DNA of 64,000 nucleotides, taken from the NCBI GenBank assembly GCA_965204355.1, contig OZ241983.1, positions 5,061,088 through 5,125,087 of the forward strand, given 5' to 3'. The position numbers were made by a program, and so were the translations under genes. A model generated the notes under the pieces. It ran no database searches and had not been told where the DNA came from. It saw nothing but the letters and a program-made list of their open reading frames with translations. Source of the DNA: Candidatus Poribacteria bacterium. Its GTDB lineage: Bacteria; Poribacteria; WGA-4E; PCPOR2b. Of the stretch, positions 2,540 to 60,366 are shown piece by piece; the stretch's first letter is position 1; every line of letters begins with the position of its first letter.

Positions 2540-2627
2540 AGTGGCGGATGCCTCCATTTCTAAAGAATGCTATAAGGACATGATGAGAATACCATATCTC
2601 AGCAGCATTAGCAAGTGTAGGACCATT

Positions 2628-2735
2628 TATAGTGAATTATCAAAATATGTAGACACTTTCGCTCCCCATATTTGGTAGGCGCTGTTTCCAACTGCGCCGG
2701 TACAGAGTGTCCAAGTAATTCTAAAGTTCACCATA
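2628..2735. repeat. MITE-like element, family A, short form
   Basis: Inverted termini: tatagtgaatt ... agtaattctaaagttcaccata. The core is agacactttcgc ... ggtaggcgctgtttccaactgcgccg. At least 12 related copies occur in the window. Confidence 0.6.
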
Positions 2736-2743
2736 GTTCTTCT

Positions 2744-2811
2744 GTAGGAGGGATTTCCAAATCCCGACACGTCGCCCTAGGTCTGTAGGAGGGATTTCCA
2801 AATCCCGACAC
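2744..2811. repeat. two direct copies of the REP palindrome gtaggagggatttccaaatcccgacac
   Basis: The perfect palindrome ggatttccaaatcc occurs twice 41 bp apart. The same REP recurs near 9655 and 60070. Related forms occur in the RAYT-flanking arrays. Confidence 0.6.
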
Positions 2812-2873
2812 TGCGCTCTATGAGCGACTTTCCGACTCTGACTTTTCAAACAAAATGGGTCATAAGTCTAAAA

Positions 2874-3034
2874 CTATGGTGAATTAGATAAATAAATAGA
2901 CACTTTCGCCCCCGTGTTTGGTAGGCGCTGTTTCCAACTGCGCCGATGCCGTGCGGTTAAAAACCGCACCTACCGGGCCTGGGAGCAATGCGGTGCGGTT
3001 TGGAGTGTCTCAGTAATTCTAAAATCTACCATAA
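2874..3034. repeat. MITE-like element, family A, long form with an internal double hairpin
   Basis: Same termini and core as 2628-2735. It carries an extra gtgcggtt ... aaccgcac stem-loop module that is also seen at 4368, 24639, 28925, 30121 and 40100. Confidence 0.6.
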
Positions 3035-3257
3035 ATAGCCTTATTAGCAAGTGTGATACGAATTGACAAATCAATGGGTTGTGGGTGATAATTGGTTATA
3101 GATTTTCTTGCGAATCGGGATTGTTTCGAGGGGACAATCTAACTGTACCGGATTTGGAGGTTGTGCGACCCAAAGTTTAGCGAAAGTGTCAATCTATTTT
3201 TGAATTATCGCGCTACAATTATGATATAATAACCCAAGCCCGTTAAAAGGAGAGAAC

Positions 3258-4364
3258 ATGACGAATTTATACCGTGTTGCTATTATCGGTACCGGTCGTA
3301 TGGGCGGCTTAATTGAAGATGAACTCTCGGTTAACCAATTTTCGAGCCCTTACGGTCATTTTAGCGCCTATGCTGCTATCGAGCAGACTGAGGTGGTAGC
3401 CGTTGCCAATCGTGGGGAGGACCGTCTGAAACGGTTCACCGATAGGTTCGGAATTACTAACACTTATCTCGATTATCGTGAGATGATTGAGCAGGAAAAG
3501 CCGGACATCGTGAGCGTGACTACGCCGTCATTCGCACGCGCTGAACCGATTATCTTTGCAGCAGAACACGGTGTGCGAGGAATATATTCAGAAAAGGGAC
3601 TGTGTGCCTCGCTGGCAGAAGCTGACCGCATCGCCGCTGCGTGTAAGGCTAACGGTGTTGCCTTCAATTGGGGCGCGATGCGCCGACACCATGACGGTTA
3701 TATTCGGATGCGTGATGCCATAACCCAAGGAGATATTGGTGAACCTCGCTACGCGGTGATGTCGAGTTATACCGACATAATCAAACATCACCCACACACC
3801 CTAGACCTCGTATCCATGTTGCTTGGCGATCCAATGCCAAGTTGGGTGGAGGGACGCCTTGTGCAGCGGGGAGAGCCGTTGGCTGCAAACGCAGATGAAC
3901 GCCCACGTGCATACCCGGAGTATGACTCGACTGGACACTGCTTTGTGCCACCCGCCGGAGAAGAAATTGCCGATCCCATGGTCGGATTTTTCCGGATCAG
4001 CTATGAGAACGATACAGAGGGAATTTTTCTGCCCATATCTGGACCATTTAACGTTGAGGTATACGGTACTGAAGGTCATGCCTACGCATGGGACAACGGC
4101 GACCTTTTCTGCGTCCGTAGCAGCGCAAAGGGCGGGGCAGCTGTTGATGAACAGGTTATTAAACCGACGGGCGAAAGTCCTACGGTGTGCACGATTCGCA
4201 ACATTATCCGAGAGATTGAAACGGGTGAGCGCACCACAGGCAATATCGATATAACGATGCAATCAGTAGAGGCGCAGTTTGGTATCGCACACTCGCACTT
4301 GCAAGGCGGTGCTCGTGTGTCATTACCCGTCGCGGATCGGACGCTTTACATCCCCGGTGGTTGA
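3258..4364 (+). CDS. Gfo/Idh/MocA family oxidoreductase
   Basis: Begins MTNLYRVAIIGTGRMGG (Rossmann fold). A strong AAAGGAGAG ribosome-binding site lies upstream. Confidence 0.8.
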   Translation: MTNLYRVAIIGTGRMGGLIEDELSVNQFSSPYGHFSAYAAIEQTEVVAVANRGEDRLKRFTDRFGITNTYLDYREMIEQEKPDIVSVTTPSFARAEPIIFAAEHGVRGIYSEKGLCASLAEADRIAAACKANGVAFNWGAMRRHHDGYIRMRDAITQGDIGEPRYAVMSSYTDIIKHHPHTLDLVSMLLGDPMPSWVEGRLVQRGEPLAANADERPRAYPEYDSTGHCFVPPAGEEIADPMVGFFRISYENDTEGIFLPISGPFNVEVYGTEGHAYAWDNGDLFCVRSSAKGGAAVDEQVIKPTGESPTVCTIRNIIREIETGERTTGNIDITMQSVEAQFGIAHSHLQGGARVSLPVADRTLYIPGG

Positions 4365-4367
4365 TAG

Positions 4368-4527
4368 TATAGTGGACCTTAGAATTAATGAGACACTCCA
4401 AATCGAACCGCATTACCCTCAGGCCCGGTAGGTGCGGTTTTTAACCGCACCGCATCGGCGCAGTTGGAAACAGCGCCTACCATACACGGGGAGCGAAAGC
4501 GCCTATCTGTTTTTAGAATTCACCATA
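4368..4527. repeat. MITE-like element, family A, in reverse orientation
   Basis: Runs from tatagtggaccttagaattaatgagacactcc to ttttagaattcaccata. It has the same internal modules as 2874-3034. Confidence 0.6.
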
Positions 4528-4652
4528 ATAGGACTGATGCAGCTGGAAGTTGGACAGGCACAAAACCTGCCCCTACAAAGGATTGACCCCCTGTAGGGGT
4601 AACCCTTGTGGTTGCCCTTGCTACTCAATTCACTACAAAGGAGACAGCACTT

Positions 4653-5332: not shown

Positions 5333-5487
5333 AAATAGTGAACAATATAAATATGTAGACGTTCACCAATAGTGCCCCTTATCGAAGCCTCATGAAGTCC
5401 CCCTGAGCTTCCCAAGTCCCCCTGACAAGGGGGATTTAGGGGGTTGGTTGTGTGTCGAAAGTGTATAAGTAATTCTAAAGTTCACCA
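5333..5487. repeat. MITE-like element, family A variant with an agtccccctgacaagggggatttagggggtt core
   Basis: Termini are tataaatagtgaaca ... taagtaattctaaagttcacca. The element ends 3 bp before the start codon of the RM gene. Confidence 0.5.
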
Positions 5488-5490
5488 AAA

Positions 5491-8400
5491 ATGCTCAATC
5501 TCAAGCCAACACACAAAATCATCAGAGACTACTACGATGAGTTGGATCGGTTGGATCAGCTCGACACAACGCATGAGGGGGCCGTGCGATCGGCGTTCCA
5601 AGCTTTGCTCCAAGGTTGTGCACGACAGTTTAATTGGACCTTGGTGACTGAACATTCAATGTCCCCTCCCGATAAATCGGGATCCCGATGCCGTTCCGAG
5701 CATTCCGATCTATCGGAACCTGTCGGGACCGTGATAAAGGGGGCTAGGGGGGTTAAGAACAAGCGGATTGTCGTTGATGGCGCGTTGGTAGATAGCTTCC
5801 AACTGCCACACGGCTATTGGGAGGCGAAGGACATCCACGATAATCTACCCACTGAAGTCCAGCGCAAGTTTGAGGTGGGGTATCCCCGTGACAACATCCT
5901 CTTCCAAACCCCACACCGCGCCATCCTTTGGCAGCACAATCGGCAGGCGCTCGATGCCGACCTAACGGATCCGACGCAACTGATAGGGACCCTCGAAACC
6001 TTCTTTTCCCACCGGCCGCAGGAATACGCGGAATGGGAGGAGGCGGTGGCACAGTTCCGGGAACGGGTACCCGCACTTGGGAAGGGCCTGGCGGAACGCA
6101 TCCACGCTGAACGGGAGACAAATCGGGCGTTTATTGCTGCCTTTGCCGACTTCCATGAGAAGTGTTGTCAATCAATCAACCCGAACCTCTCCGAAGCTGC
6201 CGTTGAGGAAATGTTGATCCAGCACCTGTTGACCGAGCGGATCTTCCGAACCGTGTTTAGCAACTCCGATTTCATCCACCGCAATGTCATCGCCCGTGAA
6301 ATCGAAACCGTTATCAACGCGCTAACGTCTCACGCGTTCAGTCGCGAGGATTTTCTGCGTAGCCTTGATCCGTTCTATGTGGCGATCGAGCGTACCGCTG
6401 CCACCATTGATGACTTCTCCCAAAAACAGGGGTTTCTCAACACGGTTTACGAGCAGTTTTTTCAAGGCTTTTCCGTGGAGGTTGCGGACACGCACGGGAT
6501 CGTCTATACGCCGCAGCCGATTGTCGATTTTATGGTGAGAAGTGTTGAGGAGATCCTAAAGACCGAGTTCAGTCGATCGCTCTCCGATTCGGGTGTTCAT
6601 ATCATTGATCCGTTTGTGGGGACCGGCAATTTTATCGTGCGGCTGATGCGAGAAATTCGCAAGACCGCGCTGGGGCAAAAATACACGACCGAACTCCACT
6701 GCAACGAGGTGATGTTGCTGCCGTATTACATCGCGTCGATGAACATCGAACATGAATTTTACGAGGCGACGGGTAGATATCAACCGTTTGAGGGAATCTG
6801 TCTTGTGGATACCTTTGAACTGGCAGAAGACACCCACTACTATGAAGATTCGCTGTTTACAGAGGAGAACACCCGCCGCGTTGAAAAACAGAAGGAAACG
6901 CCGATGTTTGTGGTCATCGGTAATCCACCCTATAACGTCGGTCAGGTCAACGAGAACGACAACAATAAAAATCGGAAATATGAGAAAATGGATGCGCGGG
7001 TTGCGGAAACTTATGCAAAAGACTCCACAGCGACGCTCAAACGTAAACTCTACGACCCATACATAAAGGCGATCCGGTGGGCAGCGGACCGGATAGACGG
7101 GGAAGGGGTTGTTGCATTCATAACGAACAACAGCTTTCTCGCTGATATGACCTTTGACGGAATGCGGAAGCACCTCACAGACGATTTCGACGCGATTTAC
7201 ATTCTGGATCTGGGTGGGAATGCCCGGAAGGAATTGAAGGCCTCGGATGCCAATGTGTTCGGGATTCGGGTTGGTGTGAGCATCAACCTATTTGTAAAAA
7301 CCGGGCGAGCGATGAATCACCCGACTAGCCGTGGGAGGGACATCTCCCGTTCCGCCTGTCCCGATGCTGTCGGGGAGGATCCCGACAAGTCGGGACCTGC
7401 CCTGATGCGTATCTTTTACCATCGCACCGATGACCTGTGGAACAAGAAACAGAAAATCGATTTTCTGAATGAACGCGGACACATCGGCAATGTAGATTGG
7501 CAAACCATTCAACCTGACACACACCACACATGGCTCACCGAAGGACTCCACGCTGAATTTGAAACCTTTATTCCAATGGGAACTAAGGAAGTGAAGGCAG
7601 CAAAAAGTGAAGCGGTGGATGTGATTTTTCAGACTTATAGTCTCGGTATCAGCACCAACCGTGATGCGTGGGCGCGTAATTTCAACCAAAACACGCTGAC
7701 TAAAAAAATGAGTGGAATGATTGAAACTTACAACGCCGAGGTTGATAGGTGGCAACGTCGTGAGAACCGCGATGCGAATGTTGATGATTTTGTGATTTAT
7801 GATGATGAGAAAATCAAGTGGAGTTCGGGTTTAAAGCAGAAGCTAGAAAGCGGAGAAATCGCAGAATTTGCAGAATCAAAAATCCGACAATTCCTCTATC
7901 GTCCGTTTACGAGATCGAACCTCTACTTTGACCGAATGATAAACGATAGGGTGCTCCTGTTCCCATCCATCTTCCCTACACCTGAAACAGAAGCGGAAAA
8001 TCGGGTAATTTGCCTGACTGATAAAGGTTCTGAGAAACCCTTTATGATTCTTATGGGTCATCAATTAACTGATCTTCATGTTGTGGGTCCCGGTTGTGGT
8101 ACTCAATGCTTTCCCTTCTACACCTACGACGAGGCTGGGAGAAACCGCCGAGAAAACATCACCGATTGGGCGTTAGAGCAATTCCGAGCGCATTACGGAG
8201 ACGACACTATTGGCAGGTGGGACATCTTTCATTATGTCTACGGTCTACTCCACCATCCAACTTATCGCGAGCGGTATCAGGCAAACCTCAAACGGGATCT
8301 GCCACGTCTCCCTTATGCACCGGATTTCTGGGCGTTTGCCGAAGCGGGGAAACGGTTAGGGGAAATCCACGTCGGCTACGAGGATGTAGACGAATATCCG

Positions 8401-8739
8401 CTACGTTTCGTCGAGACACCGGATACACCCCTCGATTGGCGGGTGGAGAAGATGAAATTGTCTAAGGACAAGACGGGGATAAAATATAACAATTTCCTAA
8501 CACTCGACGGAATACCCGCGAAGGTGTTTGACTATCGGCTGGGGAATCGGTCTGCGTTGGAATGGGTGATAGATCAGTATCGCGTCAAGACGGACAAACG
8601 GAGCGGCATCGTCAACGACCCGAACCGCGAAGATGATCCGGAGTATATCGTCCGGTTGATTGGAAAGGTGATCGCGGTTAGTTTGGAGACGGTGGAGATT
8701 GTGGAGGGATTGCCCAATTTGGGAGTGCCTTCTCATTAA
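5491..8739 (+). CDS. single-polypeptide restriction-modification enzyme (Type IIG / ISP-like) with a PD-(D/E)xK nuclease, a gamma-class N6-adenine DNA methyltransferase and a C-terminal target-recognition region
   Basis: The N-terminal region carries a PD-(D/E)xK-like pattern (VVDGALVD-x9-EAK). Motif X is GIVYTPQPIVDFM, motif I is IIDPFVGTGNF and motif IV is GNPPYNV. A C-terminal region of about 450 aa follows. The ORF is intact despite two REP-derived in-frame segments. Confidence 0.6.
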   Translation: MLNLKPTHKIIRDYYDELDRLDQLDTTHEGAVRSAFQALLQGCARQFNWTLVTEHSMSPPDKSGSRCRSEHSDLSEPVGTVIKGARGVKNKRIVVDGALVDSFQLPHGYWEAKDIHDNLPTEVQRKFEVGYPRDNILFQTPHRAILWQHNRQALDADLTDPTQLIGTLETFFSHRPQEYAEWEEAVAQFRERVPALGKGLAERIHAERETNRAFIAAFADFHEKCCQSINPNLSEAAVEEMLIQHLLTERIFRTVFSNSDFIHRNVIAREIETVINALTSHAFSREDFLRSLDPFYVAIERTAATIDDFSQKQGFLNTVYEQFFQGFSVEVADTHGIVYTPQPIVDFMVRSVEEILKTEFSRSLSDSGVHIIDPFVGTGNFIVRLMREIRKTALGQKYTTELHCNEVMLLPYYIASMNIEHEFYEATGRYQPFEGICLVDTFELAEDTHYYEDSLFTEENTRRVEKQKETPMFVVIGNPPYNVGQVNENDNNKNRKYEKMDARVAETYAKDSTATLKRKLYDPYIKAIRWAADRIDGEGVVAFITNNSFLADMTFDGMRKHLTDDFDAIYILDLGGNARKELKASDANVFGIRVGVSINLFVKTGRAMNHPTSRGRDISRSACPDAVGEDPDKSGPALMRIFYHRTDDLWNKKQKIDFLNERGHIGNVDWQTIQPDTHHTWLTEGLHAEFETFIPMGTKEVKAAKSEAVDVIFQTYSLGISTNRDAWARNFNQNTLTKKMSGMIETYNAEVDRWQRRENRDANVDDFVIYDDEKIKWSSGLKQKLESGEIAEFAESKIRQFLYRPFTRSNLYFDRMINDRVLLFPSIFPTPETEAENRVICLTDKGSEKPFMILMGHQLTDLHVVGPGCGTQCFPFYTYDEAGRNRRENITDWALEQFRAHYGDDTIGRWDIFHYVYGLLHHPTYRERYQANLKRDLPRLPYAPDFWAFAEAGKRLGEIHVGYEDVDEYPLRFVETPDTPLDWRVEKMKLSKDKTGIKYNNFLTLDGIPAKVFDYRLGNRSALEWVIDQYRVKTDKRSGIVNDPNREDDPEYIVRLIGKVIAVSLETVEIVEGLPNLGVPSH

Positions 8740-8768
8740 ACACAGCGCGTAAAAGAAATGTCTCAAAT

Positions 8769-8940
8769 TATAGTAGATTTTAGAATTACTTGGACACTGC
8801 CAATAGTCGAGGTGAGGAAACCTCGACTACCGGAGATGGAAAAATCTGGGCTATGACCCCGGTAGGTGCGGTTTCTCCCCGCACCGCATCAGCGCAGTTA
8901 CAAACAGCGCCTACCAAACACGGAGAGCGAAGGCACTCAT
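8769..8940. repeat. MITE-like element, family A, degenerate at one end
   Basis: Contains tatagtagattttagaattacttggacact ... ggtaggtgcggtttctccccgcaccgc ... cagcgcctaccaaacacggagagcgaagg. Confidence 0.5.
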
Positions 8941-9195
8941 CAAACCGGTGGGTGACACATCAATTGATTAAATACCTATCTCGACAGTCGTATGTATTCC
9001 GCTCCAGCGGAGCGATATGTCTATAGAATCGTGATAGGTCCAACGGCCGCGCTCCAGCGGAGCGCAATATGTATAGCAAGAGTTTCAGTTCGTAGTAGCG
9101 CATTTCTTAATCCCGATTTATCGGGGATTCATTGCGCGTTCGGACGGCGGATGAAGAAACGGGCGGCTACAATCTGAAGTGTGCAAGCCGCCCTG

Positions 9196-9584: not shown

Positions 9585-9830
9585 TATTCAGTTTTAGGCT
9601 TTTTACGTATTTTGTTTGAAAAGTCGGAGTCGGGCAGTCGCTCTTAGAGCGACGTGTCGGGATTTGGAAATCCCTCCTACAGAAGAACTATGGTGAATTT
9701 TAGAATTACTTGAACGCTCTGTACCGGCGAGGATGGGAAAAGCCGGACTATCACCCCGGTAGGCGCAGTTACAAACAGCACCTACCAAACATGGGGAACG
9801 AAAGTGTCTATCTGTTTTTAGAATCCACTA
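9585..9830. repeat. composite repeat: a family B element followed by a family A MITE
   Basis: The first block is cagttttaggct ... tattttgtttgaaaagtcggagtcgggcagtcgctcttagagcgacgtgtcgggatttggaaatccctcctac. The second block is ctatggtgaattttagaattacttgaacgctctgtaccggcg ... agaatccactaatt. The same B+A pair recurs at 60003-60265. The repeat ends 3 bp before ATG 9834. Confidence 0.55.
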
Positions 9831-9833
9831 ATT

Positions 9834-10862
9834 ATGAGATGTAAAGCACGAACCCCCTTCATTTTTCGATGTCATAGAAGCGCCGTTGAAAACAGCCCCT
9901 ACTGCGCTGAGCATCAGAACTACCCACCGAGCGGTTGGCGGTATGGATTGCTAACGGCTTCAAGGATTGCGACCGGGATTGCTGCGGCTGCGGTTACGGT
10001 TGTCGGTTTCGCCTGCCTAAGAAACTGTCCCAACAAGGATCTGAAGGAGAGCGAAGGGCAGCTGCGTGGGATGGCGCCATTTGAGTACGCTGTGTTGTGT
10101 CTGGCGATTTACGAGGCTAAGACGGAACTGCGCATCTCCACAAAAACGGATGGCGCCCAGATCTTTATGACGCCAGCGGCGAGTAACGATGTCTATTTCT
10201 CCCGAATAACAGAGCCACCGAACTGGACGCAGCTCTCCGCTCCTTCACGTCGGGCCCAACTTCCGGAGGCGCTAAAGGGCGCAACGTTTGAGGACCCTAA
10301 CACAGGTTTCCGTGCGATGTTATACCGATCAAGGGACGAGCAGGAGATTGTCGTTGTTTATCGGGGTGTAAGGAGAACCAATATCCTCCAAGATAGCCAG
10401 ACCTGCCTCTCCCAAGGGTTAGGGTTTGGCGCAGCAATATATCGACAGGCAATCGAACTCGCCCTAGCGGTTGTGGAGGCGTATGGGGACAAGGTGATCT
10501 TCACGGGGCATTCCATGGGCGGCGGTCTGGCAGCCTCAGCGAGCATCGTTGCGAATCGTCCAGCGGTGACTTTCAACAGTGCAGGGGTGCACCCCGCTAC
10601 CCTTGAAGGGTTTGACTTAGTAGATCATGCGACCATTGACGAAAGACTGAAGTCCATTGAGAACTATTATGTGCCGGGCGAATGGCTATCCACTTTACAA
10701 CGTCCCTGCTTTGTCAAGAGCGCCGCTGGGGTACATATTCCACTGCCGGATGTCGGAGGTCGAGTCTCTGTGAAAATGGTGCCCGCCCGGAATAAAGGAC
10801 GTGGCAAACACTCAATCACGTTGATTATTGCGACACTGTACGAACTCGCCGAACCCTCCTAA
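9834..10862 (+). CDS. alpha/beta-hydrolase, lipase class-3-like protein with an N-terminal transmembrane segment
   Basis: Contains a nucleophile elbow GHSMGGGLA, a Cys-rich N-terminus and then a hydrophobic helix. No ribosome-binding site is present, because the MITE abuts the start. Confidence 0.5.
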   Translation: MRCKARTPFIFRCHRSAVENSPYCAEHQNYPPSGWRYGLLTASRIATGIAAAAVTVVGFACLRNCPNKDLKESEGQLRGMAPFEYAVLCLAIYEAKTELRISTKTDGAQIFMTPAASNDVYFSRITEPPNWTQLSAPSRRAQLPEALKGATFEDPNTGFRAMLYRSRDEQEIVVVYRGVRRTNILQDSQTCLSQGLGFGAAIYRQAIELALAVVEAYGDKVIFTGHSMGGGLAASASIVANRPAVTFNSAGVHPATLEGFDLVDHATIDERLKSIENYYVPGEWLSTLQRPCFVKSAAGVHIPLPDVGGRVSVKMVPARNKGRGKHSITLIIATLYELAEPS

Positions 10863-12622: not shown

Positions 12623-12712
12623 TCTGTAGGTCGATTTTCCAAAATCGACGTTTCGGAGTCGAGATATGAATCTCGACCTATGCCGTTCCGAGCCTCCCGA
12701 TGAATCGGGACA
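12623..12712. repeat. REP-like palindrome cluster
   Basis: Contains gtcgattttccaaaatcgac, gtcgagatatgaatctcgac and atgccgttccgagcctcccgatgaatcgggac. The tgccgttccgag ... cccgatNaatcggg module recurs inside the RM gene and near 9400. Confidence 0.5.
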
Positions 12713-13108: not shown

Positions 13109-15175
13109 TTGGCAAAGGATCTATCCAACGTGAAAACAAATCAACGAATCAGAAACGTAGCCAATCACGCATCGCGTCCCGATATATCGGGATCCTCGGA
13201 ACGGGATTTCACGCATCACGTCCCGATATATCGGGATCCTCGGAACGGGATTTCACGCATCACGTTTCACGTCATATTTCTCATTCTGATACTTGTCGGC
13301 GGGGGCATTGGATGTTCAACCGACCGATCTCCCAAGTCCGGTCGTTGGGAAATTGTTCGGCGCGCAGATTGGGAAGCGAGATTCTACGATGTATTCTTCA
13401 TTGATGAGCGTACCGGATGGATAGTTGGAAATAACGCGGGAAGCACATTTGCTGAAGAACTTGACAGCGTCATCGCTCACACAACGGATGGCGGCGTGAC
13501 ATGGCAGCCACAACAGAGCGACGTCTACCATCCGTTACGAGCGGTGCGATTTGTGGACAGCCAAACCGGGTGGATCGTTGGCGAAAATGGTGTTATTCTA
13601 CACACAAAAAATGGCGGGGAGAAGTGGGAACGGCAATCAGCGGACACGTATGACAACCTGTTCGATCTTCATTTTGCTTCAGCCCAAGAAGGGTGGATCG
13701 TCGGCGATTTCGGGACGGTGTTACACACAACGGATGGCGGACAGACTTGGGCGAATCGATCGGAAGGAATCGGTGACAATTCACTGCGAGGCGTATTTTT
13801 CCTCAATTCCCGTCAAGGCTGGACGGTTAGCCATCAGGGCAACGCTTTTTATACACGCGATGGCGGAAAGCGTTGGACTTATCAGAAAACAAACGTCCGC
13901 TACGAGTTGTCCGATGTCCATTTTGTCGATGAAAATCGTGGTTGGATCATCGGCGACAAGCGCACGGTGCTTGCCACACAGGATGGCGGCAGGAATTGGG
14001 AGTATCTAACACGAGGCTCCAATAAACGTCACGAAGAGCACTACGGTCAGCAGATAAGAACTGGGGATGAACCACTACACACCTTCCTCCTGTACGCGCT
14101 CCACTTCACCGATACCGAGAATGGCTGGATCGTTGGCGACTTGGGGGCTATCTTGCACACCAACGATGGTGGGCGGACGTGGAAACATCAGCGGGGCGGT
14201 GCAACACAATTGGTCGGAGCGGATGTCGTTCTGCTGGGGGTCCATTTTGTCAATGCCCAGCTCGGTTGGACTGTCGGTGAGTTTGGGACGATCTGGCATA
14301 CTAAAAATGGCGGGCAAACGTGGGAACTTCAATCCGCACCCAGCTACCTGCTCACAGATCTCCACTTTATCAATGACAAGGTTGGATATGCGGTGGGTGA
14401 CCGTGGGGAGGTTCTTCGCACAGACGACGGCGGGTTACACTGGCAATCGCAGGATAGCGGAACGATGGAGTGTTTCGGATCAACCCATTTTATCAACGAC
14501 AAGGTCGGCTGGAGCGTTGCAGAATGGGGAACGATTGTCCACACCATTGACGGCGGCAAAACGTGGTCACAGCAAGAAGCGGATACGGAAAATGACCTCC
14601 TCGGCGTCTCCTTCGTTGACCCACAGCGAGGGTGGGCAATCGGTCACAGCGGGGAGATTTTGCACACCGCGGACGGCGGCAAAACGTGGGAGAAACAACG
14701 CAGCGGTGTCAATCGTCATCTCTTTGGAGTACATTTCATTGACCCTCAAAACGGATGGGTTGTAGGGCAGGGCGGTGTGATTCTTCACACCCGGAACGGC
14801 GGTCAAAAGTGGGATTTGCAAGCCGAACTCGGAGAAATCTGGCTATCAGGGGTCTATTTTACAGACTATCTAAACGGTTGGGTTGTCGGGATTGATGGCT
14901 TGGTGCTCCACACAACCGACGGCGGGCGCACGTGGAAACGTCAAAAAAGCTACGTGGAAAGTTTCCTGAATAGTGTCTTCTTCCTCAATGCAAACCTCGG
15001 TTGGGCGGTCGGCGGCGAAGGCACGGTTATCCGTACCCTCGATGGCGGTGAGAACTGGCGTCCGCAACGGTGCGAAAGCCACTATAACCTGAACTCGATC
15101 TATATGCAGGACGCTGAAACCGGTTGGATCGTCGGCGATCTCGGCGTGATGTTGCGGTATGTCATTGATGATTAG
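13109..15175 (+). CDS. BNR/Asp-box repeat beta-propeller protein (Ycf48-like or exo-alpha-sialidase-like repeats), probably a lipoprotein
   Basis: About 12 repeats of the (T/D)xDGGxTW Asp-box are present. A lipobox-like LILVGGGIGC follows a 50-aa N-terminal region that contains two 44-bp REP repeats, so the true start is uncertain. Confidence 0.6.
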   Translation: MAKDLSNVKTNQRIRNVANHASRPDISGSSERDFTHHVPIYRDPRNGISRITFHVIFLILILVGGGIGCSTDRSPKSGRWEIVRRADWEARFYDVFFIDERTGWIVGNNAGSTFAEELDSVIAHTTDGGVTWQPQQSDVYHPLRAVRFVDSQTGWIVGENGVILHTKNGGEKWERQSADTYDNLFDLHFASAQEGWIVGDFGTVLHTTDGGQTWANRSEGIGDNSLRGVFFLNSRQGWTVSHQGNAFYTRDGGKRWTYQKTNVRYELSDVHFVDENRGWIIGDKRTVLATQDGGRNWEYLTRGSNKRHEEHYGQQIRTGDEPLHTFLLYALHFTDTENGWIVGDLGAILHTNDGGRTWKHQRGGATQLVGADVVLLGVHFVNAQLGWTVGEFGTIWHTKNGGQTWELQSAPSYLLTDLHFINDKVGYAVGDRGEVLRTDDGGLHWQSQDSGTMECFGSTHFINDKVGWSVAEWGTIVHTIDGGKTWSQQEADTENDLLGVSFVDPQRGWAIGHSGEILHTADGGKTWEKQRSGVNRHLFGVHFIDPQNGWVVGQGGVILHTRNGGQKWDLQAELGEIWLSGVYFTDYLNGWVVGIDGLVLHTTDGGRTWKRQKSYVESFLNSVFFLNANLGWAVGGEGTVIRTLDGGENWRPQRCESHYNLNSIYMQDAETGWIVGDLGVMLRYVIDD
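13170..13257. repeat. 44-bp tandem repeat, two copies, inside the 5' coding region of the BNR protein
   Basis: Two adjacent units of catc(g/a)cgtcccgatatatcgggatcctcggaacgggatttcacg. The core palindrome cccgatatatcggg relates to the genome-wide cccgataaatcggg. Confidence 0.65.
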
Positions 15176-15444
15176 CCGACAACAGTAGGCACATCTTAAT
15201 CCAAGTTGCTAATCGTCAAGCCCACTCGGCTTGGATAGACATATCCAAGTCATCTGTGCATGTTTACAGTGGATTTGTCAGTCCACTGCGAACGGTGATT
15301 AAGAGCATTCTCCTGTAGGAGCGATTTCCAAATCGCGACACGTCGGGAATCGGAGTTCCCAGCTACCGGCGCAACATTGTATTCTGTAGAGCGATCCCCG
15401 AATCGCGACTGAATGCTTTGATAGTCGGGAATCGGAGTTCCCTC

Positions 15445-15918
15445 CTACCGCATGTCGAATTTGCATCGCCAATGTGGGTAATCTTCGGGATGTTTGACAA
15501 GCCCTTTTCTGACGGGGTTTTCGTAACAATAACGAATGATTTTGTTCAAGGATTCATCGCGGCGGATCCCGTGGTCATAGTAGTTAGCTTGCCAGATGGG
15601 ACTGTTCCCCAGCAGCCGCGCGTTGATTTGGTTGGCTGTGAACCTCTTGAAAGATTGGACGAGGCTAGATAAAGTTTGTTTGTTTCCGAGTTGGAAGACA
15701 ACGTGAATGTGGTCTGGCATCACCATGATGCACATCCATTTGAGACGTACCTCCTTTTCAAGCCAGTCGAAAGATTCATAAATAATATCTGGAATGCCGG
15801 AGTTCGTTAAGAGGGGTTCCCTGTTGTGGGTAGCGAGTGTGATGGAATAATATGCGCTAGGTATTGATTTTCTACCTTTCCGCAATTGGCGGTGTCCTTT
15901 ATTAGGGGTTCGGTTCAT
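15445..15918 (-). CDS. IS200/IS605-family Y1 transposase of the REP-associated (RAYT, TnpA_REP) type
   Basis: Contains the HUH motif PDHIHVVF and the C-terminal motif RYCYENPVRKGLV (Y ... NPV+xGLV). The protein is about 157 aa and is flanked by REP arrays. Confidence 0.75.
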   Translation of the reverse strand: MNRTPNKGHRQLRKGRKSIPSAYYSITLATHNREPLLTNSGIPDIIYESFDWLEKEVRLKWMCIMVMPDHIHVVFQLGNKQTLSSLVQSFKRFTANQINARLLGNSPIWQANYYDHGIRRDESLNKIIRYCYENPVRKGLVKHPEDYPHWRCKFDMR

Positions 15919-15967
15919 GTTTTGTTCTCTTGGCAAGATATTTTGTAACAGATTACAGCGTGATACT

Positions 15968-16456
15968 TAGTTGTGTATCAAGTCATTTTCACGTAGGAGC
16001 GATCTCCGAATCGCGACCCCTCGGGAATTAGAGTTCCCGGCTACCGGCGCAACATTGTATTCTGTAGAGCGATCCCCGAATCGCGACTGAATGCTTTGAT
16101 AGTCGGGAAGCGGAGTTCCCTCCTACAACATACTTAGTGTATCAAGTCATTTTCACGTAGGAGCGATCTCCGAATCGCGACCCCTCGGGAATCGGAGTTC
16201 CCGGCTACCGGCGCAACATTGTATTCTGTAGAGCGATCCCCGAATCGCGACTGAATGCTTTGATAGTCGGGAAGCGGAGTTCCCTCCTACAACATACTTA
16301 GTGTATCAAGTCATTTTCACGTAGGAGCGATCTCCGAATCGCGACCCCTCGGGAATTAGAGTTCCCGGCTACCGGCGCAACATTGTATTCTGTAGAGCGA
16401 TCCCCGAATCGCGACTGAATGCTTTGATAGTCGGGAAGCGGAGTTCCCTCCTACAA
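15968..16456. repeat. three tandem copies of a 164-bp unit; each unit carries three REP-like palindromes
   Basis: The unit is acttagtgtatcaagtcattttcacgtaggagcgatctccgaatcgcgacccctcgggaatYRgagttcccggctaccggcgcaacattgtattctgtagagcgatccccgaatcgcgactgaatgctttgatagtcgggaagcggagttccctcctacaacat. Unit starts are near 15968, 16132 and 16296. Confidence 0.7.
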
Positions 16457-16596
16457 CTCAAAAATGTCAAGTTAATTGTAAAATCCACCATAGTTCATTG
16501 GTTCACTAGTTCGTTAATGCATTCAATGAACCAATGAACCAATAAACTAGTGAACAATGTAGCAACAACACGTCATCAGCCAATGTCAAAAAGTTG

Positions 16597-17439: not shown

Positions 17440-17600
17440 TTCCCCGATGTATGTCAGTTTAGGACTTACGCAGCGCGTTCATAAGTCCCCCTGACAATGG
17501 TTTCCCCCCTGACAAGGGGGGCTAGGGGGGTTAGAGGATTTAGGGGGTTAAAAATCAAAAATCTACCCCCGTGTGCCAAATTTGCGTAAGTCCTGTCAGT
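17440..17600. repeat. family D repeat with gacttacgcag ... ctgcgtaagtc inverted ends and a poly-ggggg core
   Basis: The full sequence is aggacttacgcagcgcg ... agtccccctgacaa ... ggggggctaggggggttagaggatttagggggttaaaaatcaaaaatctacccccgtgtgccaaatttgcgtaagtcctg. Related copies occur at 20090-20165, 25803-26152 and 58305-58425. Confidence 0.5.
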
Positions 17601-24231: not shown

Positions 24232-24638
24232 TCTCCCTCCGAATCACCAGTCGCTTCGTCACCTCACACGCTCCCACCGAGAAGTGGTAGAAGTAAACCC
24301 CACTTGTCATGCGCTAACCAGTATCATGCCAGTCCTCCCAAGAGATTGATTTGCGCAGAGAGAAACCGTAGAGGCGGGGCCGCCCGTAGGTGTCGAAAAC
24401 TCGGTTTCTATTACGTCATTTCTTTACTATCTTTAACGCAAGTTGCTAGTTAAATGTAGCGCAAACTGTTAGTTTGCGTCCTCGGATCACAATCTAACAG
24501 ATTGTGGTACAAAAGCCGCCTTTAGATGCTCCCTCCGCCTAGGGTGCCCTCAATCTATAAAGCTGATGAAACATAGAAACCATTGGGGAGAACCCTGATT
24601 CAGACAGCACCATAACTAGCAACTTAGGTTATCTTTAC

Positions 24639-24842
24639 TATAGTGAATTCTAAAAACAGATAGACACCTTCGCCCCTCGGTTTTGATCCCGATTTATCGG
24701 GGCTGGTAGGTGCGGTTTCTAACCACACCGCATTGCCCCCAGGTCCGGTAGGTGCGGTTTCCAACCGCACCGGTGCCGACTCGTCGAGCATCCTCGATAA
24801 ATCGGGATTTGGAGCGTCTCATTAATTCTAAGGTCCACTATA
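24639..24842. repeat. MITE-like element, family A, long form
   Basis: Contains tatagtgaattctaaaaacagatagacacc ... double ggtaggtgcggtttc(t/c)aacc(a/g)caccg hairpins ... gtctcattaattctaaggtccactata. Confidence 0.6.
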
Positions 24843-24859
24843 ATCAGAAAATGCTTTTA

Positions 24860-40034: not shown

Positions 40035-40100
40035 TCAGGGAAACCGAGTTTTTTGCCGACTTGTCGAGCATCCTCGCTACGCGGGACTTGAAAACTCGGT
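40035..40100 (+). terminator. probable Rho-independent terminator
   Basis: The hairpin arms gaaaccgagtttt ... aaaactcggtttc are followed by tttttat, directly downstream of the M16 peptidase stop. Confidence 0.4.
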
Positions 40101-40265
40101 TTCTTTTTATAGTAGATCTTAGAATTAATGAGACACTCCAAACCGCACCGCGTTGCCCCAGGCTCGGTAGGTGCGGTTTCTAACCGCACCGAATAGGCGC
40201 AGTTGGAAACAGCGCCTACCAAACATGGGGAGCGAAAGCGTCTATCTGTTTTTAGGATTTACTAC
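40100..40265. repeat. MITE-like element, family A, long form
   Basis: Contains tatagtagatcttagaattaatgagacactcc ... ggtaggtgcggtttctaaccgcaccg ... gagcgaaagcgtctatctgtttttagg. Confidence 0.55.
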
Positions 40266-40342
40266 AATTTATTAGTATGACCATCCGTGTCATCTGCTTA
40301 ATCCGCGATTCAGACAATAATTATGAGCACCCCTCAAATACT

Positions 40343-43581: not shown

Positions 43582-43750
43582 GGTAAATTATAGAAATAAG
43601 TAGACGTTCACCAGTATCTTCCCTTAGCGACGCCTCAATGGTCCCCCTGACAAGTTTCCCCCCTGACAAGGGGGGCTAGGGGGGTTAGGGGATTTAGCGG
43701 GTTGGCCGTGCATCAAAGGTGTATAAGTAATTATAGCATTCACCAAAATT
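43582..43750. repeat. MITE-like element, family A variant (ggggg core)
   Basis: Contains tataga aataagtagacgttcaccag ... gtccccctgacaag ... ggggggctaggggggttaggggatttagcgggtt ... tataagtaattatagcattcaccaaaa. Confidence 0.5.
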
Positions 43751-60002: not shown

Positions 60003-60265
60003 AGGGCTATTCAGTTTTAGGCTTATGACCCATTTTGTTTGAAAAGTCAGAGTCGGGCAGTCGCTCTTAGAGCGAAGTGTCGGGATTTGGAAATCCCTCC
60101 CCGATAAATCGGGATGCAAGCACCTACAGAAAAACTATGGTGAACTTTAGAATGACTTGGACACGCTGTACCGGCGCAGTTAGAAATCCTGGTCACGATT
60201 TATCGGACAGCGCCTACCAAATACCGGGAGCGAAAGTGTCTACATATTTTGATAATTCACTATAA
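60003..60265. repeat. composite repeat: a family B element followed by a family A MITE (second copy of the 9585-9830 arrangement)
   Basis: The first block is ctattcagttttaggctt ... cattttgtttgaaaagtcagagtcgggcagtcgctcttagagcgaagtgtcgggatttggaaatccctcc. The second block is tatggtgaactttagaatgacttggacacgctgtaccggcg ... gagcgaaagtgtctacatattttgataattcactata. Confidence 0.55.
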
Positions 60266-60366
60266 ATGCCCCTAGTCAAGTGGTTTTAAACGGATGTTAT
60301 TGCTTTTGTATAGCAACTTTTGAATAATCTTGTCCAAAAAAATATTTGAGAGATTGGAGTGAATAT

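Follow-up and report, generated by a model that had tools for sequence, protein, structure and literature searches.

Nested hairpin repeats form an in-frame insert in a DrdV-like restriction-modification gene of Candidatus Poribacteria

An insert of repeat modules in an intact gene

How does an intact coding sequence come to hold a run of modules that otherwise populate intergenic DNA? The question is raised by a restriction-modification (RM) gene of Candidatus Poribacteria, found in a stretch of 64,000 nucleotides (contig OZ241983.1, positions 5,061,088 to 5,125,087; assembly GCA_965204355.1) that we refer to as the window. Four scenarios may explain the insert in this gene. First, mobile hairpin elements could have entered it one after another, each nested in the last, with the reading frame kept by survivorship; we consider this the likely history. 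Alternatively, recombination may have built and spread the modules, the insert may be a functional part of the enzyme, or the repeats may derive from the gene itself. We scored insert states in an alignment of the 120 best homologues, and assessed the copy number and dispersal of the repeats in the window and in about 0.5 Mb of related loci.

Three nested elements at one site

The insert is read through without a stop as SPPDKSGSRCRSEHSDLSEPVGTVIKGARGVKNK (residues 58-91) in the open reading frame (ORF) at 5491-8739. It comes after a helix (residues 28-46) and ahead of the PD-(D/E)xK motif (D96 ... E111-x-K113) and the nuclease core's first strand. In both respects it is as a preliminary description of this DNA had it. 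That description also recognized a single element at 5665-5757. The sequence does lie there, with its best limits three bases further left, at 5662-5754; what it forms is a stack of three nested elements rather than one. Together they add 84 nt (28 codons) relative to homologues that are empty at this site. The gene and the parts of the stack are as follows.

5491-8739, + strand: host RM gene, 1082 amino acids; longest ORF of the region; single-chain, DrdV-like, predicted Type IIL
5662-5666, + strand: level-1 element, 5' remnant TCCCC; left arm of the CCCCCC-TGAYAA-GGGGGG hairpin, severed by the level-2 insertion
5667-5688, + strand: level-2 element, 5' part; hairpin 1 (TCCCGA-TAAA-TCGGGA) and the 5' arm of hairpin 2 (TCCCGA)
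5689-5718, + strand: level-3 element, 30 nt, TGCCGTTCCGAGCATTCCGATCTATCGGAA; at the exact boundary of 5' arm and loop in hairpin 2; encodes CRSEHSDLSE
5719-5728, + strand: level-2 element, 3' part; loop CCTG and 3' arm TCGGGA of hairpin 2
5729-5754, + strand: level-1 element, 3' part, CCGTGATAAAGGGGGCTAGGGGGGTT; the terminal GGGGGGTT is the ancestral Gly-Val codons

The level-1 element is thus a 21-nt G/C hairpin, and level 2 is a double hairpin of 32/33 nt lying in its 5' arm. The units are hairpins with 6-bp stems (TCCCGA-N4-TCGGGA, TTCCGA-TCTA-TCGGAA, and CCCCCC-TGAYAA-GGGGGG); the outer stem pair is retained in 63 % of the distinct CCGA..TCGG hairpins, in C-G, T-A, A-T, and G-C variants. 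Both of the interrupted elements exist in uninterrupted form at the same site of other genes. Level 1 occurs as TCCCCCCTGATAAGGGGGGCTAGGGGGGTT at the same codons in the syntenic orthologue L082 and in many paralogues, and the level-2 double hairpin occurs as TCCCGATAAATCGGGATCCCGACCTGTCGGGAC at the insert site of L084 and L001. The level-3 element is missing from L084, whose flanks are 97-98 % identical to those of the window. No Rfam family was found for the insert region.

Insert states among homologues and near-identical strains

Among the 120 homologues, 54 have no insert at the site (for example, EHSM-TGVQNR-RIVVDG) and 66 have some insert, so that the added residues are absent from close homologues, as the preliminary description expected. 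An insert of the PLIRGARGV type is found in 53 and one of the PPDKSGSRPVGTVTRGARGV type in 6, with a partial form in one more; 4 have other inserts. In the window protein, CRSEHSDLSE is added inside an insert of the PPDKSGSRPVGTVTRGARGV type, and its closest relative, P0004, gains a further ACPDAVG. The empty state is the plurality and includes all distant Latescibacterota relatives; it is also the state of the syntenic orthologue L083 and of the paralogue P0018, probably from the same genome.

Four loci, L081 to L084, are syntenic orthologues of the window gene, with genes for GFO_IDH_MocA and 3-keto-disaccharide hydrolase upstream. L083 is empty between the codons for EHSM and RIVVDG. L082 carries TCCCCCCTGATAAGGGGGGCTAGGGGGGTT, 21 nt more than the empty paralogues L006 and L022, which already have the ..GGGGGGTT.. 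stretch, and the series from L006/L022 to L003/L082 documents this first increment. In L084, TCCCC is followed by TCCCGATAAATCGGGATCCCGACCTGTCGGGAC and then by CGTGACAAGGGGGG.., an addition of 33 nt. The window gene has TGCCGTTCCGAGCATTCCGATCTATCGGAA between ..GATCCCGA and CCTGTCGGGAC.. (+30 nt), and L081 has a fourth level, CCTGTCCCGATGCAGTCGGGG, between ..CCGTTCCG and AGCATTCC.. (+21 nt). All increments (21, 33, 30, and then 21 nt in the sister strain) are multiples of three, another expectation of the preliminary description that held.

Over 1 kb, the flanks of the window insert are 96-98 % identical to those of L081, L082, and L084. Likewise, the proteins P0001, P0003, P0004, P0005, P0009, and P0011 are 96-99 % identical in their N-terminal third and differ in insert state, and a level-2 and a level-4 allele occur on two contigs of one sample. 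Since near-identical strains hold different insert states, the insertion events appear to be recent. We infer that the direction of change is gain and not precise loss. The locus would then be an unusually clean natural time series of selfish hairpin repeats building protein sequence, with four steps each kept in a living strain. In L001, whose gene is only about 80 % identical and whose level-1 part has diverged, the double hairpin still matches the L084 copy at 33/33 positions; this would fit an inner element that is younger or was acquired independently.

These states also bear on the proposal that the repeats derive from a segment of the gene, or that errors of assembly or annotation in a pseudogene produced the stretch; nothing was found in favour of either. 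An origin in the gene agrees poorly with the empty plurality and its distant Latescibacterota members, and with the Caldilineaceae genes, which are empty or hold an unrelated hairpin. Independent assemblies of different samples, among them a contig of 6.04 Mb at 26x coverage, show the insert states again, which argues against an assembly artefact. As for a pseudogene, the ORF is intact, its catalytic residues are invariant, and its codon differences show a synonymous excess. We regard this proposal as scarcely credible.

Free copies of the units in intergenic DNA

The preliminary description assigned the insert to the same modules as the intergenic repeats, and the three modules that it quoted do recur in the window far above chance. 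CCCGATAAATCGGG has 15 matches with no more than one mismatch, against 0.02 expected; TGCCGTTCCGAG has 4 against 0.29, and GGGGCTAGGGGGGTT has 3 against 0.14. The hairpin CCCGA-N3-6-TCGGG is present 19 times (0.4 expected), 13 times outside long ORFs, and CCCC..TGAYAA..GGGG is found at 6 loci (0 expected). About 64 % of the nucleotides in repeated 11-mers fall in the 15.5 % of the window that is non-coding, a census that is noisy inside ORFs, where segments of at least 15 nt are meaningful. Within the window, no gene other than the RM gene is a clear coding host of the modules. A search with the 41-residue insert peptide for unrelated proteins carrying the same peptide gave no candidates. Free copies in the window include the following.

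5418-5445, + strand: level-1-type copy, CCCCCTGACAAGGGGGATTTAGGGGGTT; leader of the host gene, whose start codon lies 45 nt downstream; repeat families D11 and D15
12681-12710, + strand: level-3-type copy, 30 nt; intergenic; 25/30
13177-13206 and 13221-13250, - strand: two level-3-type copies, 25/30; within a 44-nt tandem duplication
17504-17532, + strand: level-1 copy; intergenic; 28/29 identical to the orthologue form
43658-43686, + strand: level-1 copy; intergenic

Further level-1 copies are present in L002 and L036, and shorter relatives lie at 5418, 21552, 25898, and 58349 of the window. The free level-3 copies have the same ends as the coding copy and show, in the stem, a compensatory replacement of T-A by C-G. 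A free intergenic copy of the double hairpin is found at L081:1963 (32/33), and the 21-mer that forms the level-4 unit occurs at 7355 and 36940 of the window. Because copies with the same boundaries lie in intergenic DNA, and because empty homologues exist, the repeats entered the gene and not the reverse, in agreement with the preliminary description.

All 6 intact CCCCCTGAYAAGGGGG-type (level-1-type) copies in the window are on the + strand, as is the split copy in the gene, and the flanking genes point both ways; this uniformity may be a replication-strand bias. The tails of these elements, GGGGGGCTAGGGGGGTTAGGGGATTTAGGGGGTT, have up to four G-runs.

A second case of filled and empty sites lies in the spacer between two genes upstream of the RM gene (window 4365-4607; L081:1865-2312; also L082 to L084). 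This spacer is a mosaic of repeat modules and measures 137-448 nt among strains that are 96-98 % identical in their coding flanks. In L081, the double hairpin (32 nt) sits inside a GTAG-tagged repetitive extragenic palindrome (REP), between GGCGC and GAAACAGCGCCTACC; the window lacks it, with flanks otherwise identical.

Recombination, the main rival, could also produce nests of this kind. Hairpin-promoted slippage or template switching would make the units locally, and gene conversion among RM paralogues and intergenic clusters would spread the composites. Several observations agree with this model: genomes have several paralogues at 65-80 % identity, neighbouring units share the stem vocabulary TCCCGA / TTCCGA, the whole segment is tandemly duplicated in L040 and L059, and the double-hairpin junctions show small untemplated changes. 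In addition, identical level-2 peptides are found in paralogues that are about 75 % identical, including P0035, the longest contig of which is the one of 6.04 Mb with the level-4 allele P0004. Yet free copies with exactly the same ends stand in unrelated intergenic surroundings whose flanks share no homology with the gene, and the same double hairpin has entered a different host hairpin in the upstream spacer. Nor is there microhomology at the level-3 and level-4 junctions, which share no bases beyond one nucleotide, and for this reason we rank template switching below transposition. Recombination as the source of the nest is thus unlikely, and stepwise insertion of mobile elements is the reading that we follow below.

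A common target and a reading-frame filter

Five junction pairs could be compared with empty sites: the level-2 unit within level 1, the level-3 unit within hairpin 2 of level 2, the level-4 unit within the level-3 element (two places), and the double hairpin within the spacer REP. In 5/5, the incoming unit sits at, or at most 2 bases from, the 3' end of the 5' arm of the host hairpin, and none of the five shows a target-site duplication.

The host gene has a second insert of the same make.

7345-7395, + strand: second in-frame insert in the host gene, 51 nt, 17 codons; absent from the syntenic orthologue L082

It consists of a 30-nt level-3-type element, TCCCGTTCCG and AGGATCCCGACAAGTCGGGA, carrying between these parts a 21-nt hairpin element, CCTGTCCCGATGCTGTCGGGG, at 7355-7375. 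In the first insert of L081, the level-3 element holds the same 21-mer (20/21) at the identical internal position, GTTCCG^AG. Other syntenic orthologues have different inserts at the site of the second insert.

The canonical level-1 element contains TGA, TAA, and TAG; of its three forward frames a single one is open, and the gene uses it. One more T in the loop of the L029 and L045 copies moves the reading frame, so that PLDKGGQGGSGQ takes the place of PLIRGARGV; TAG has become CAG there, and further downstream the original frame resumes. In P0047, a similar element that lies at a different site reads PPDKGELKGVT. The double hairpin is 32 nt long when free, and its coding copy adds 33 nt. It follows that the encoded peptide is incidental and that the frame is kept through survivorship.

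The host enzyme and the insertion site

The host protein consists of a PD-(D/E)xK nuclease, a helical coupler, an N6-adenine methyltransferase, and a target-recognition domain, in this order. Pfam matches are Type_ISP_C (1.8e-105), ISP_coupler, N6_Mtase, and Eco57I. The nearest solved structure is that of the Type IIL enzyme DrdV (PDB 7lo5, 1029 amino acids; E=2.4e-198 over host residues 87-1075), whose domain order is identical. LlaGI and LlaBIII align to the host protein only from residue 217 onward; therefore, it is without their helicase part. With an N-terminal nuclease, a helical connector, a gamma-type N6A methyltransferase, a target-recognition domain at the C terminus, and no ATPase motor, the protein is predicted from its sequence to be a Type IIL enzyme of the DrdV/MmeI type.

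Residues D96, E111, and K113 and the NPPY motif at 478-481 are invariant among 48 homologues. Over 500 codons, synonymous differences between the window gene and its orthologues exceed non-synonymous ones, from 45:11 to 59:39. Because these differences are mostly synonymous, the insert-bearing lineage has evolved under purifying selection, and with its ORF intact and its catalytic residues invariant the gene looks functional.

In species-representative genomes, nearly all relatives of the gene belong to Candidatus Poribacteria, with more distant copies (65-70 % identity) in metagenome-assembled genomes (MAGs) of Latescibacterota and Caldilineaceae. The window thus derives from a sponge symbiont of the Poribacteria. 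Several paralogues are found per genome, up to 7 or more, at 65-80 % identity. Such sharing across phyla suggests exchange among co-resident sponge symbionts, and the host gene is a member of an expanded defence-gene family that these phyla have in common. Across MAGs of Poribacteria, Latescibacterota, and Caldilineaceae, the DrdV-like gene is shared at 65-80 % identity, and many paralogues of the family share a ..GRAATRAAP.. motif.

In the alignment with DrdV, the insert point falls at about residues 51-56 of DrdV. About 4 residues occupy this stretch in DrdV and 32 in the host protein, the extra ones being encoded by the repeats. The DrdV helices that precede this point carry endonuclease-endonuclease contacts (K8/R12/D15 and E41/R46), opposite the active site (bioRxiv 10.1101/2021.01.06.425610). 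From the tolerance of indels and this alignment, the insert is predicted to sit in a surface-exposed loop. Ser, Pro, Gly, Asp, Lys, and Arg abound in it, as one would expect of a flexible loop; insert-bearing stretches of the predicted proteins include ...EHSMSPPDKSGSR... and ...SEPVGTVIK....

The same protein position is occupied in another phylum. Four Caldilineaceae paralogues (L037, L048, L066, and L073, at about 1669-1710; OY282381.1) carry there an unrelated GC-rich hairpin, GCGCCTC-N-GAGGCGC plus CATCGAACACTGCGCGCGG, of which one free copy lies at L073:5252; the remaining Caldilineaceae paralogues are empty. Beyond this one, the family has four or more recurrent insert sites, near residues 360, 618-639, 763, and 982. 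The site in question is a recurrent hot spot of indels in a tolerant loop, and multi-copy defence genes can serve as tolerant landing pads. Poribacteria and the co-resident Latescibacterota and Caldilineaceae are to be flagged as repeat-rich, since gene calls and alignments from them will hold repeat-encoded loops. Repeat-encoded inserts near residues 360, 763, and 982 were seen in P0012, P0026, P0047, P0059, P0062, and others. At L031:2488, a GTAG-tagged perfect palindrome, GTAGGGAACGGAGATCTCCGTTCC, is read as ..PPVGNGDLRSS...

A position so close to the dimer contacts invites the idea that the insert is functional and selected, either as a variable linker that tunes dimerisation between nucleases and thereby licenses cleavage, or as an RNA/DNA hairpin stack that throttles expression of a potentially toxic enzyme. 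In its favour, the insert begins some 6-10 residues beyond the helix bearing E41 and R46 in DrdV (bioRxiv 10.1101/2021.01.06.425610), the loop is occupied in 66/120 homologues and in another phylum, and a level-1 copy also lies in the leader of the gene. However, paralogues differ in the frame in which one and the same DNA element is read, and the resulting peptides are unrelated. Moreover, 54/120 homologues do without any insert, its content varies among alleles that are 95-99 % identical in the N-terminal third, its fold energy is unexceptional, and identical modules are overwhelmingly intergenic. An effect on dimerisation is conceivable, and selection for the insert as a functional part is very unlikely.

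Relation to known repeat classes

A transposase gene of the kind associated with REPs lies 10 kb from the insert.

15445-15936, - strand: REP-associated tyrosine transposase (RAYT); NCBIfam REP_Tyr_transpos, 125.9 bits (cut-off 80); Pfam Y1_Tnp, 2.6e-12

It forms a REPtron (window 15295-16464) with 164-nt units at both flanks, a single one at the first and three in tandem (15973-16464, 97-100 % identical) at the second. Every one of these units contains two GTAG-tagged hairpins, GTAGGAGCGATCTCCGAATCGCGAC, of repeat families D1 and D14; the GTAG-tagged REPs of the window fall in families D8, D14, and D18. This RAYT is a candidate for the enzyme that mobilises the insert modules.

REP super-families are defined as GTAG- or CGTC-tagged palindromes associated with RAYTs (Di Nocera et al. 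2013, PMC3733652). The insert units resemble them as short (about 20-40 nt) imperfect palindromes or stem-loops that are dispersed in high copy and mainly extragenic. They carry no GTAG/CTAC or CGTC/GACG at the ends of the four unit types, and the RAYT of the window is flanked by GTAGGAGCGATCTCCGAATCGCGAC-type units and not by them. Judged by tag and RAYT adjacency, the units fall outside the strict super-families and yet behave as REPs do. The name "REP-like" in the preliminary description is therefore loosely right, except that the tag of the RAYT-flanking repeats is missing.

Intragenic REPs are known from Opitutus, Thauera, Xanthomonas, and other bacteria, where they stand as singles, dimers, or clusters, frequently within genes of DNA metabolism, and encode 20-82 residues (PMC3733652). 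Our case is like theirs in that palindromes of 20-40 nt, mostly extragenic, are found inside intact ORFs, sometimes with two inserts per gene, are recognized through shorter homologues, and share the genome with a RAYT (PMC3733652). Unlike them, the units have no GTAG/CGTC tag, are nested rather than juxtaposed, and survive with all intermediates in near-identical strains. In the REPIN/RAYT systems (Bertels and Rainey 2011, PMC3116915), a Y1 transposase present as a single copy is believed to mobilise non-autonomous hairpin repeats in trans; REPINs themselves are doublets of REPs, measure about 70-110 nt, and go with a RAYT of their own. The RAYT of the window, with its doublet-like 164-nt units, recalls this arrangement, whereas the insert units are smaller, untagged, and do not adjoin the RAYT.

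Rickettsia palindromic elements (RPEs; Ogata et al. 2000, 2002) are described, in two later articles, as selfish palindromes inserted in frame at fold-compatible sites of genes that stay functional (PMC10969869, PMC3733652). The in-frame insertion is shared with our units. RPEs are elements of about 100-150 bp that encode a conserved peptide and occur in Rickettsia only; here the units are of 16-33 nt and of unrelated sequence, are read in more than one frame, and are nested.

The preliminary description held that in-frame palindromes are rare outside Rickettsia and a few other lineages. They are less rare than that: fusions of repeats with ORFs occur in many bacteria (PMC3184786), and in-frame palindromic insertions are documented in Opitutus, Thauera, Xanthomonas, Stenotrophomonas, Neisseria, pneumococcus, cyanobacteria, and Rickettsia (PMC3733652, PMC3184786, PMC10969869).

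The units do not fit MITEs, the miniature transposable elements with terminal inverted repeats around a core and target-site duplications at their flanks, as the five junction pairs show no direct duplication and the units are far below MITE size (usually 50-400 bp). The closest analogue for the nesting comes from small dispersed repeats (SDRs). In 2008, Elhai and colleagues reportedly described SDR1-8 from Nostoc and other cyanobacteria as mobile hairpin repeats of 21-27 nt that nest in each other. SDRs are said to have no encoded transposase and no obvious target duplication, and their nests are said to lie mainly in non-coding DNA. Our units match this picture in their nested hairpin repeats and their filled and empty sites (steps of 21, 32/33, 30, and 21 nt at two loci), and differ in phylum and, apparently, in sequence. 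Unlike the SDR nests, the nest described here lies inside the coding sequence of an enzyme and forms a stepwise series among natural strains.

In-frame insertions of REPs and RPEs, and nested insertions of small repeats, are thus already documented, and the general phenomenon is known. This locus contributes a nest in coding sequence of which every intermediate still exists, a consistent target at hairpin junctions, and one protein loop colonised in different phyla. We found no publication linking Poribacteria with REPs, RAYTs, REPINs, or MITEs.

A proposed mechanism and its difficulties

The nest could have arisen as follows. A G/C hairpin element, CCCCCC-TGAYAA-GGGGGG-CTA, would have entered beside the ancestral GGGGGTT. 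The double hairpin, TCCCGA-TAAA-TCGGGA TCCCGA-CCTG-TCGGGA, would then have entered the 5' arm of the level-1 hairpin, and the 30-nt element the 5' stem-loop junction of the second hairpin of this pair. In the sister strain, a fourth hairpin of 21 nt would have entered the level-3 element. Newcomers would land at or beside the end of an existing hairpin's 5' arm without target-site duplication. Since they target hairpin arms, an occupied site would become a better target and the stack would grow. Only stop-free outcomes with a length of 3n would persist, in a tolerant loop of a dispensable, multi-copy defence gene, and the encoded peptide would be a by-product, not a selected module. The lesson may be that an occupied site attracts more insertions, among which filters of frame and stop codons decide the survivors.

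What moves the units is a more tentative matter. The targets at arm ends, the lack of duplication, and the uniform + strand orientation, in small samples of five junctions and six copies, point to a strand-specific mechanism that recognizes hairpins. Most plausibly, albeit at less than even odds, the mobilising step is carried out in trans by a single-strand, hairpin-recognising HUH/Y1 enzyme of the RAYT or IS200-IS605 type.

Several observations weigh against stepwise insertion or against parts of it. Gain is formally inseparable from precise loss. The empty orthologue L083 is more diverged than the others (flanks 86-96 % identical, 86 % downstream), which leaves the date of the step from level 0 to level 1 less well constrained. 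Gene conversion, and not independent insertion, could account for the level-2 alleles seen in paralogues that are about 75 % identical. The double-hairpin junctions are imperfect, with one base added in the gene and AGTT changed to G in the spacer, and the target rule, drawn from only five junctions, has no common sequence beyond the end of a 5' hairpin arm. The RAYT-flanking REPs are GTAG-tagged, unlike the insert modules, and nothing ties the RAYT to the latter. An AlphaFold2 model of the whole protein, built with 48 homologues, was too poor to place the insert (mean predicted local distance difference test score, 41; predicted template modelling score, 0.34). Finally, folding the 105-nt region recovers the nested hairpins with a stability that is not significant against shuffled sequence (z = -1.4 as RNA and -1.6 as DNA), and we do not claim a selected RNA structure in the insert.

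The units in metagenome and viral contigs

The first 21 nt of the double hairpin, comprising hairpin 1 and the 5' arm of hairpin 2, have exact matches in 32 metagenome contigs of 34-45 % G+C. These contigs (L085 to L116), which come from other environments, carry the double hairpin as CCCGATAAATCGGGATCCCGA..TCGGG. In 24/32, the second hairpin is complete with a variable loop (the N4-8 form). The double hairpins usually lie between T-runs and A-runs or at the apex of longer inverted repeats. In L094, L095, and L110/L113, 24-29 nt stand between the CCCGA of the second hairpin and TCGGG, at the point that holds the level-3 element in the window. No gene was found consistently beside the double hairpin in these contigs, and an Rfam search of six of the 32 gave no family for it, returning only tRNAs and one chance miRNA match. 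In viral contigs, the double hairpin had no match.

These matches suggest that the double-hairpin module, or whatever recognizes it, extends beyond Poribacteria. More speculatively, the 16-33-nt modules might be mobile units that integrate specifically at 5' stem-loop junctions, hairpin into hairpin, by means of a widespread and uncharacterised machinery that recognizes the double hairpin, be it an HUH enzyme or something non-proteinaceous, with the restructuring of protein loops in sponge symbionts as a side effect; we put this forward as a doubtful idea. If both the hairpin-target rule and the occurrence of the double hairpin across phyla hold, they would offer a handle on how repeats of less than 40 nt move, a question open since REPs and SDRs were described. 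Separately, an exact level-1 element lies beside a second, similar hairpin, CCTCCCCTTATCAGGGGAGG, at L117:1172-1199, on an IMG/VR contig classed as viral.

Other repeats of the window

Long composite intergenic modules, repeated in direct and inverted orientation, bracket genes at 2618-3038, 4365-4530, 8766-8963, 9590-9834, 24634-24850, 40100-40268, and 60013-60274; examples are TATAGTGAATTCTAAAAACAGATAGACAC.., GTGTCTCATTAATTCTAAGGTCCACTATA, and GGTAGGTGCGGTTTCTAACCGCACCG. One such module ends directly upstream of several start codons. The gene at 3258-4364 is flanked by a pair of 124-nt arms that are 90 % complementary. The 44-nt tandem duplication listed above, with its CCCGATATATCGGG hairpins, spans 13170-13260, at the 5' end of a Ycf48/BNR-repeat ORF (13109-15175).

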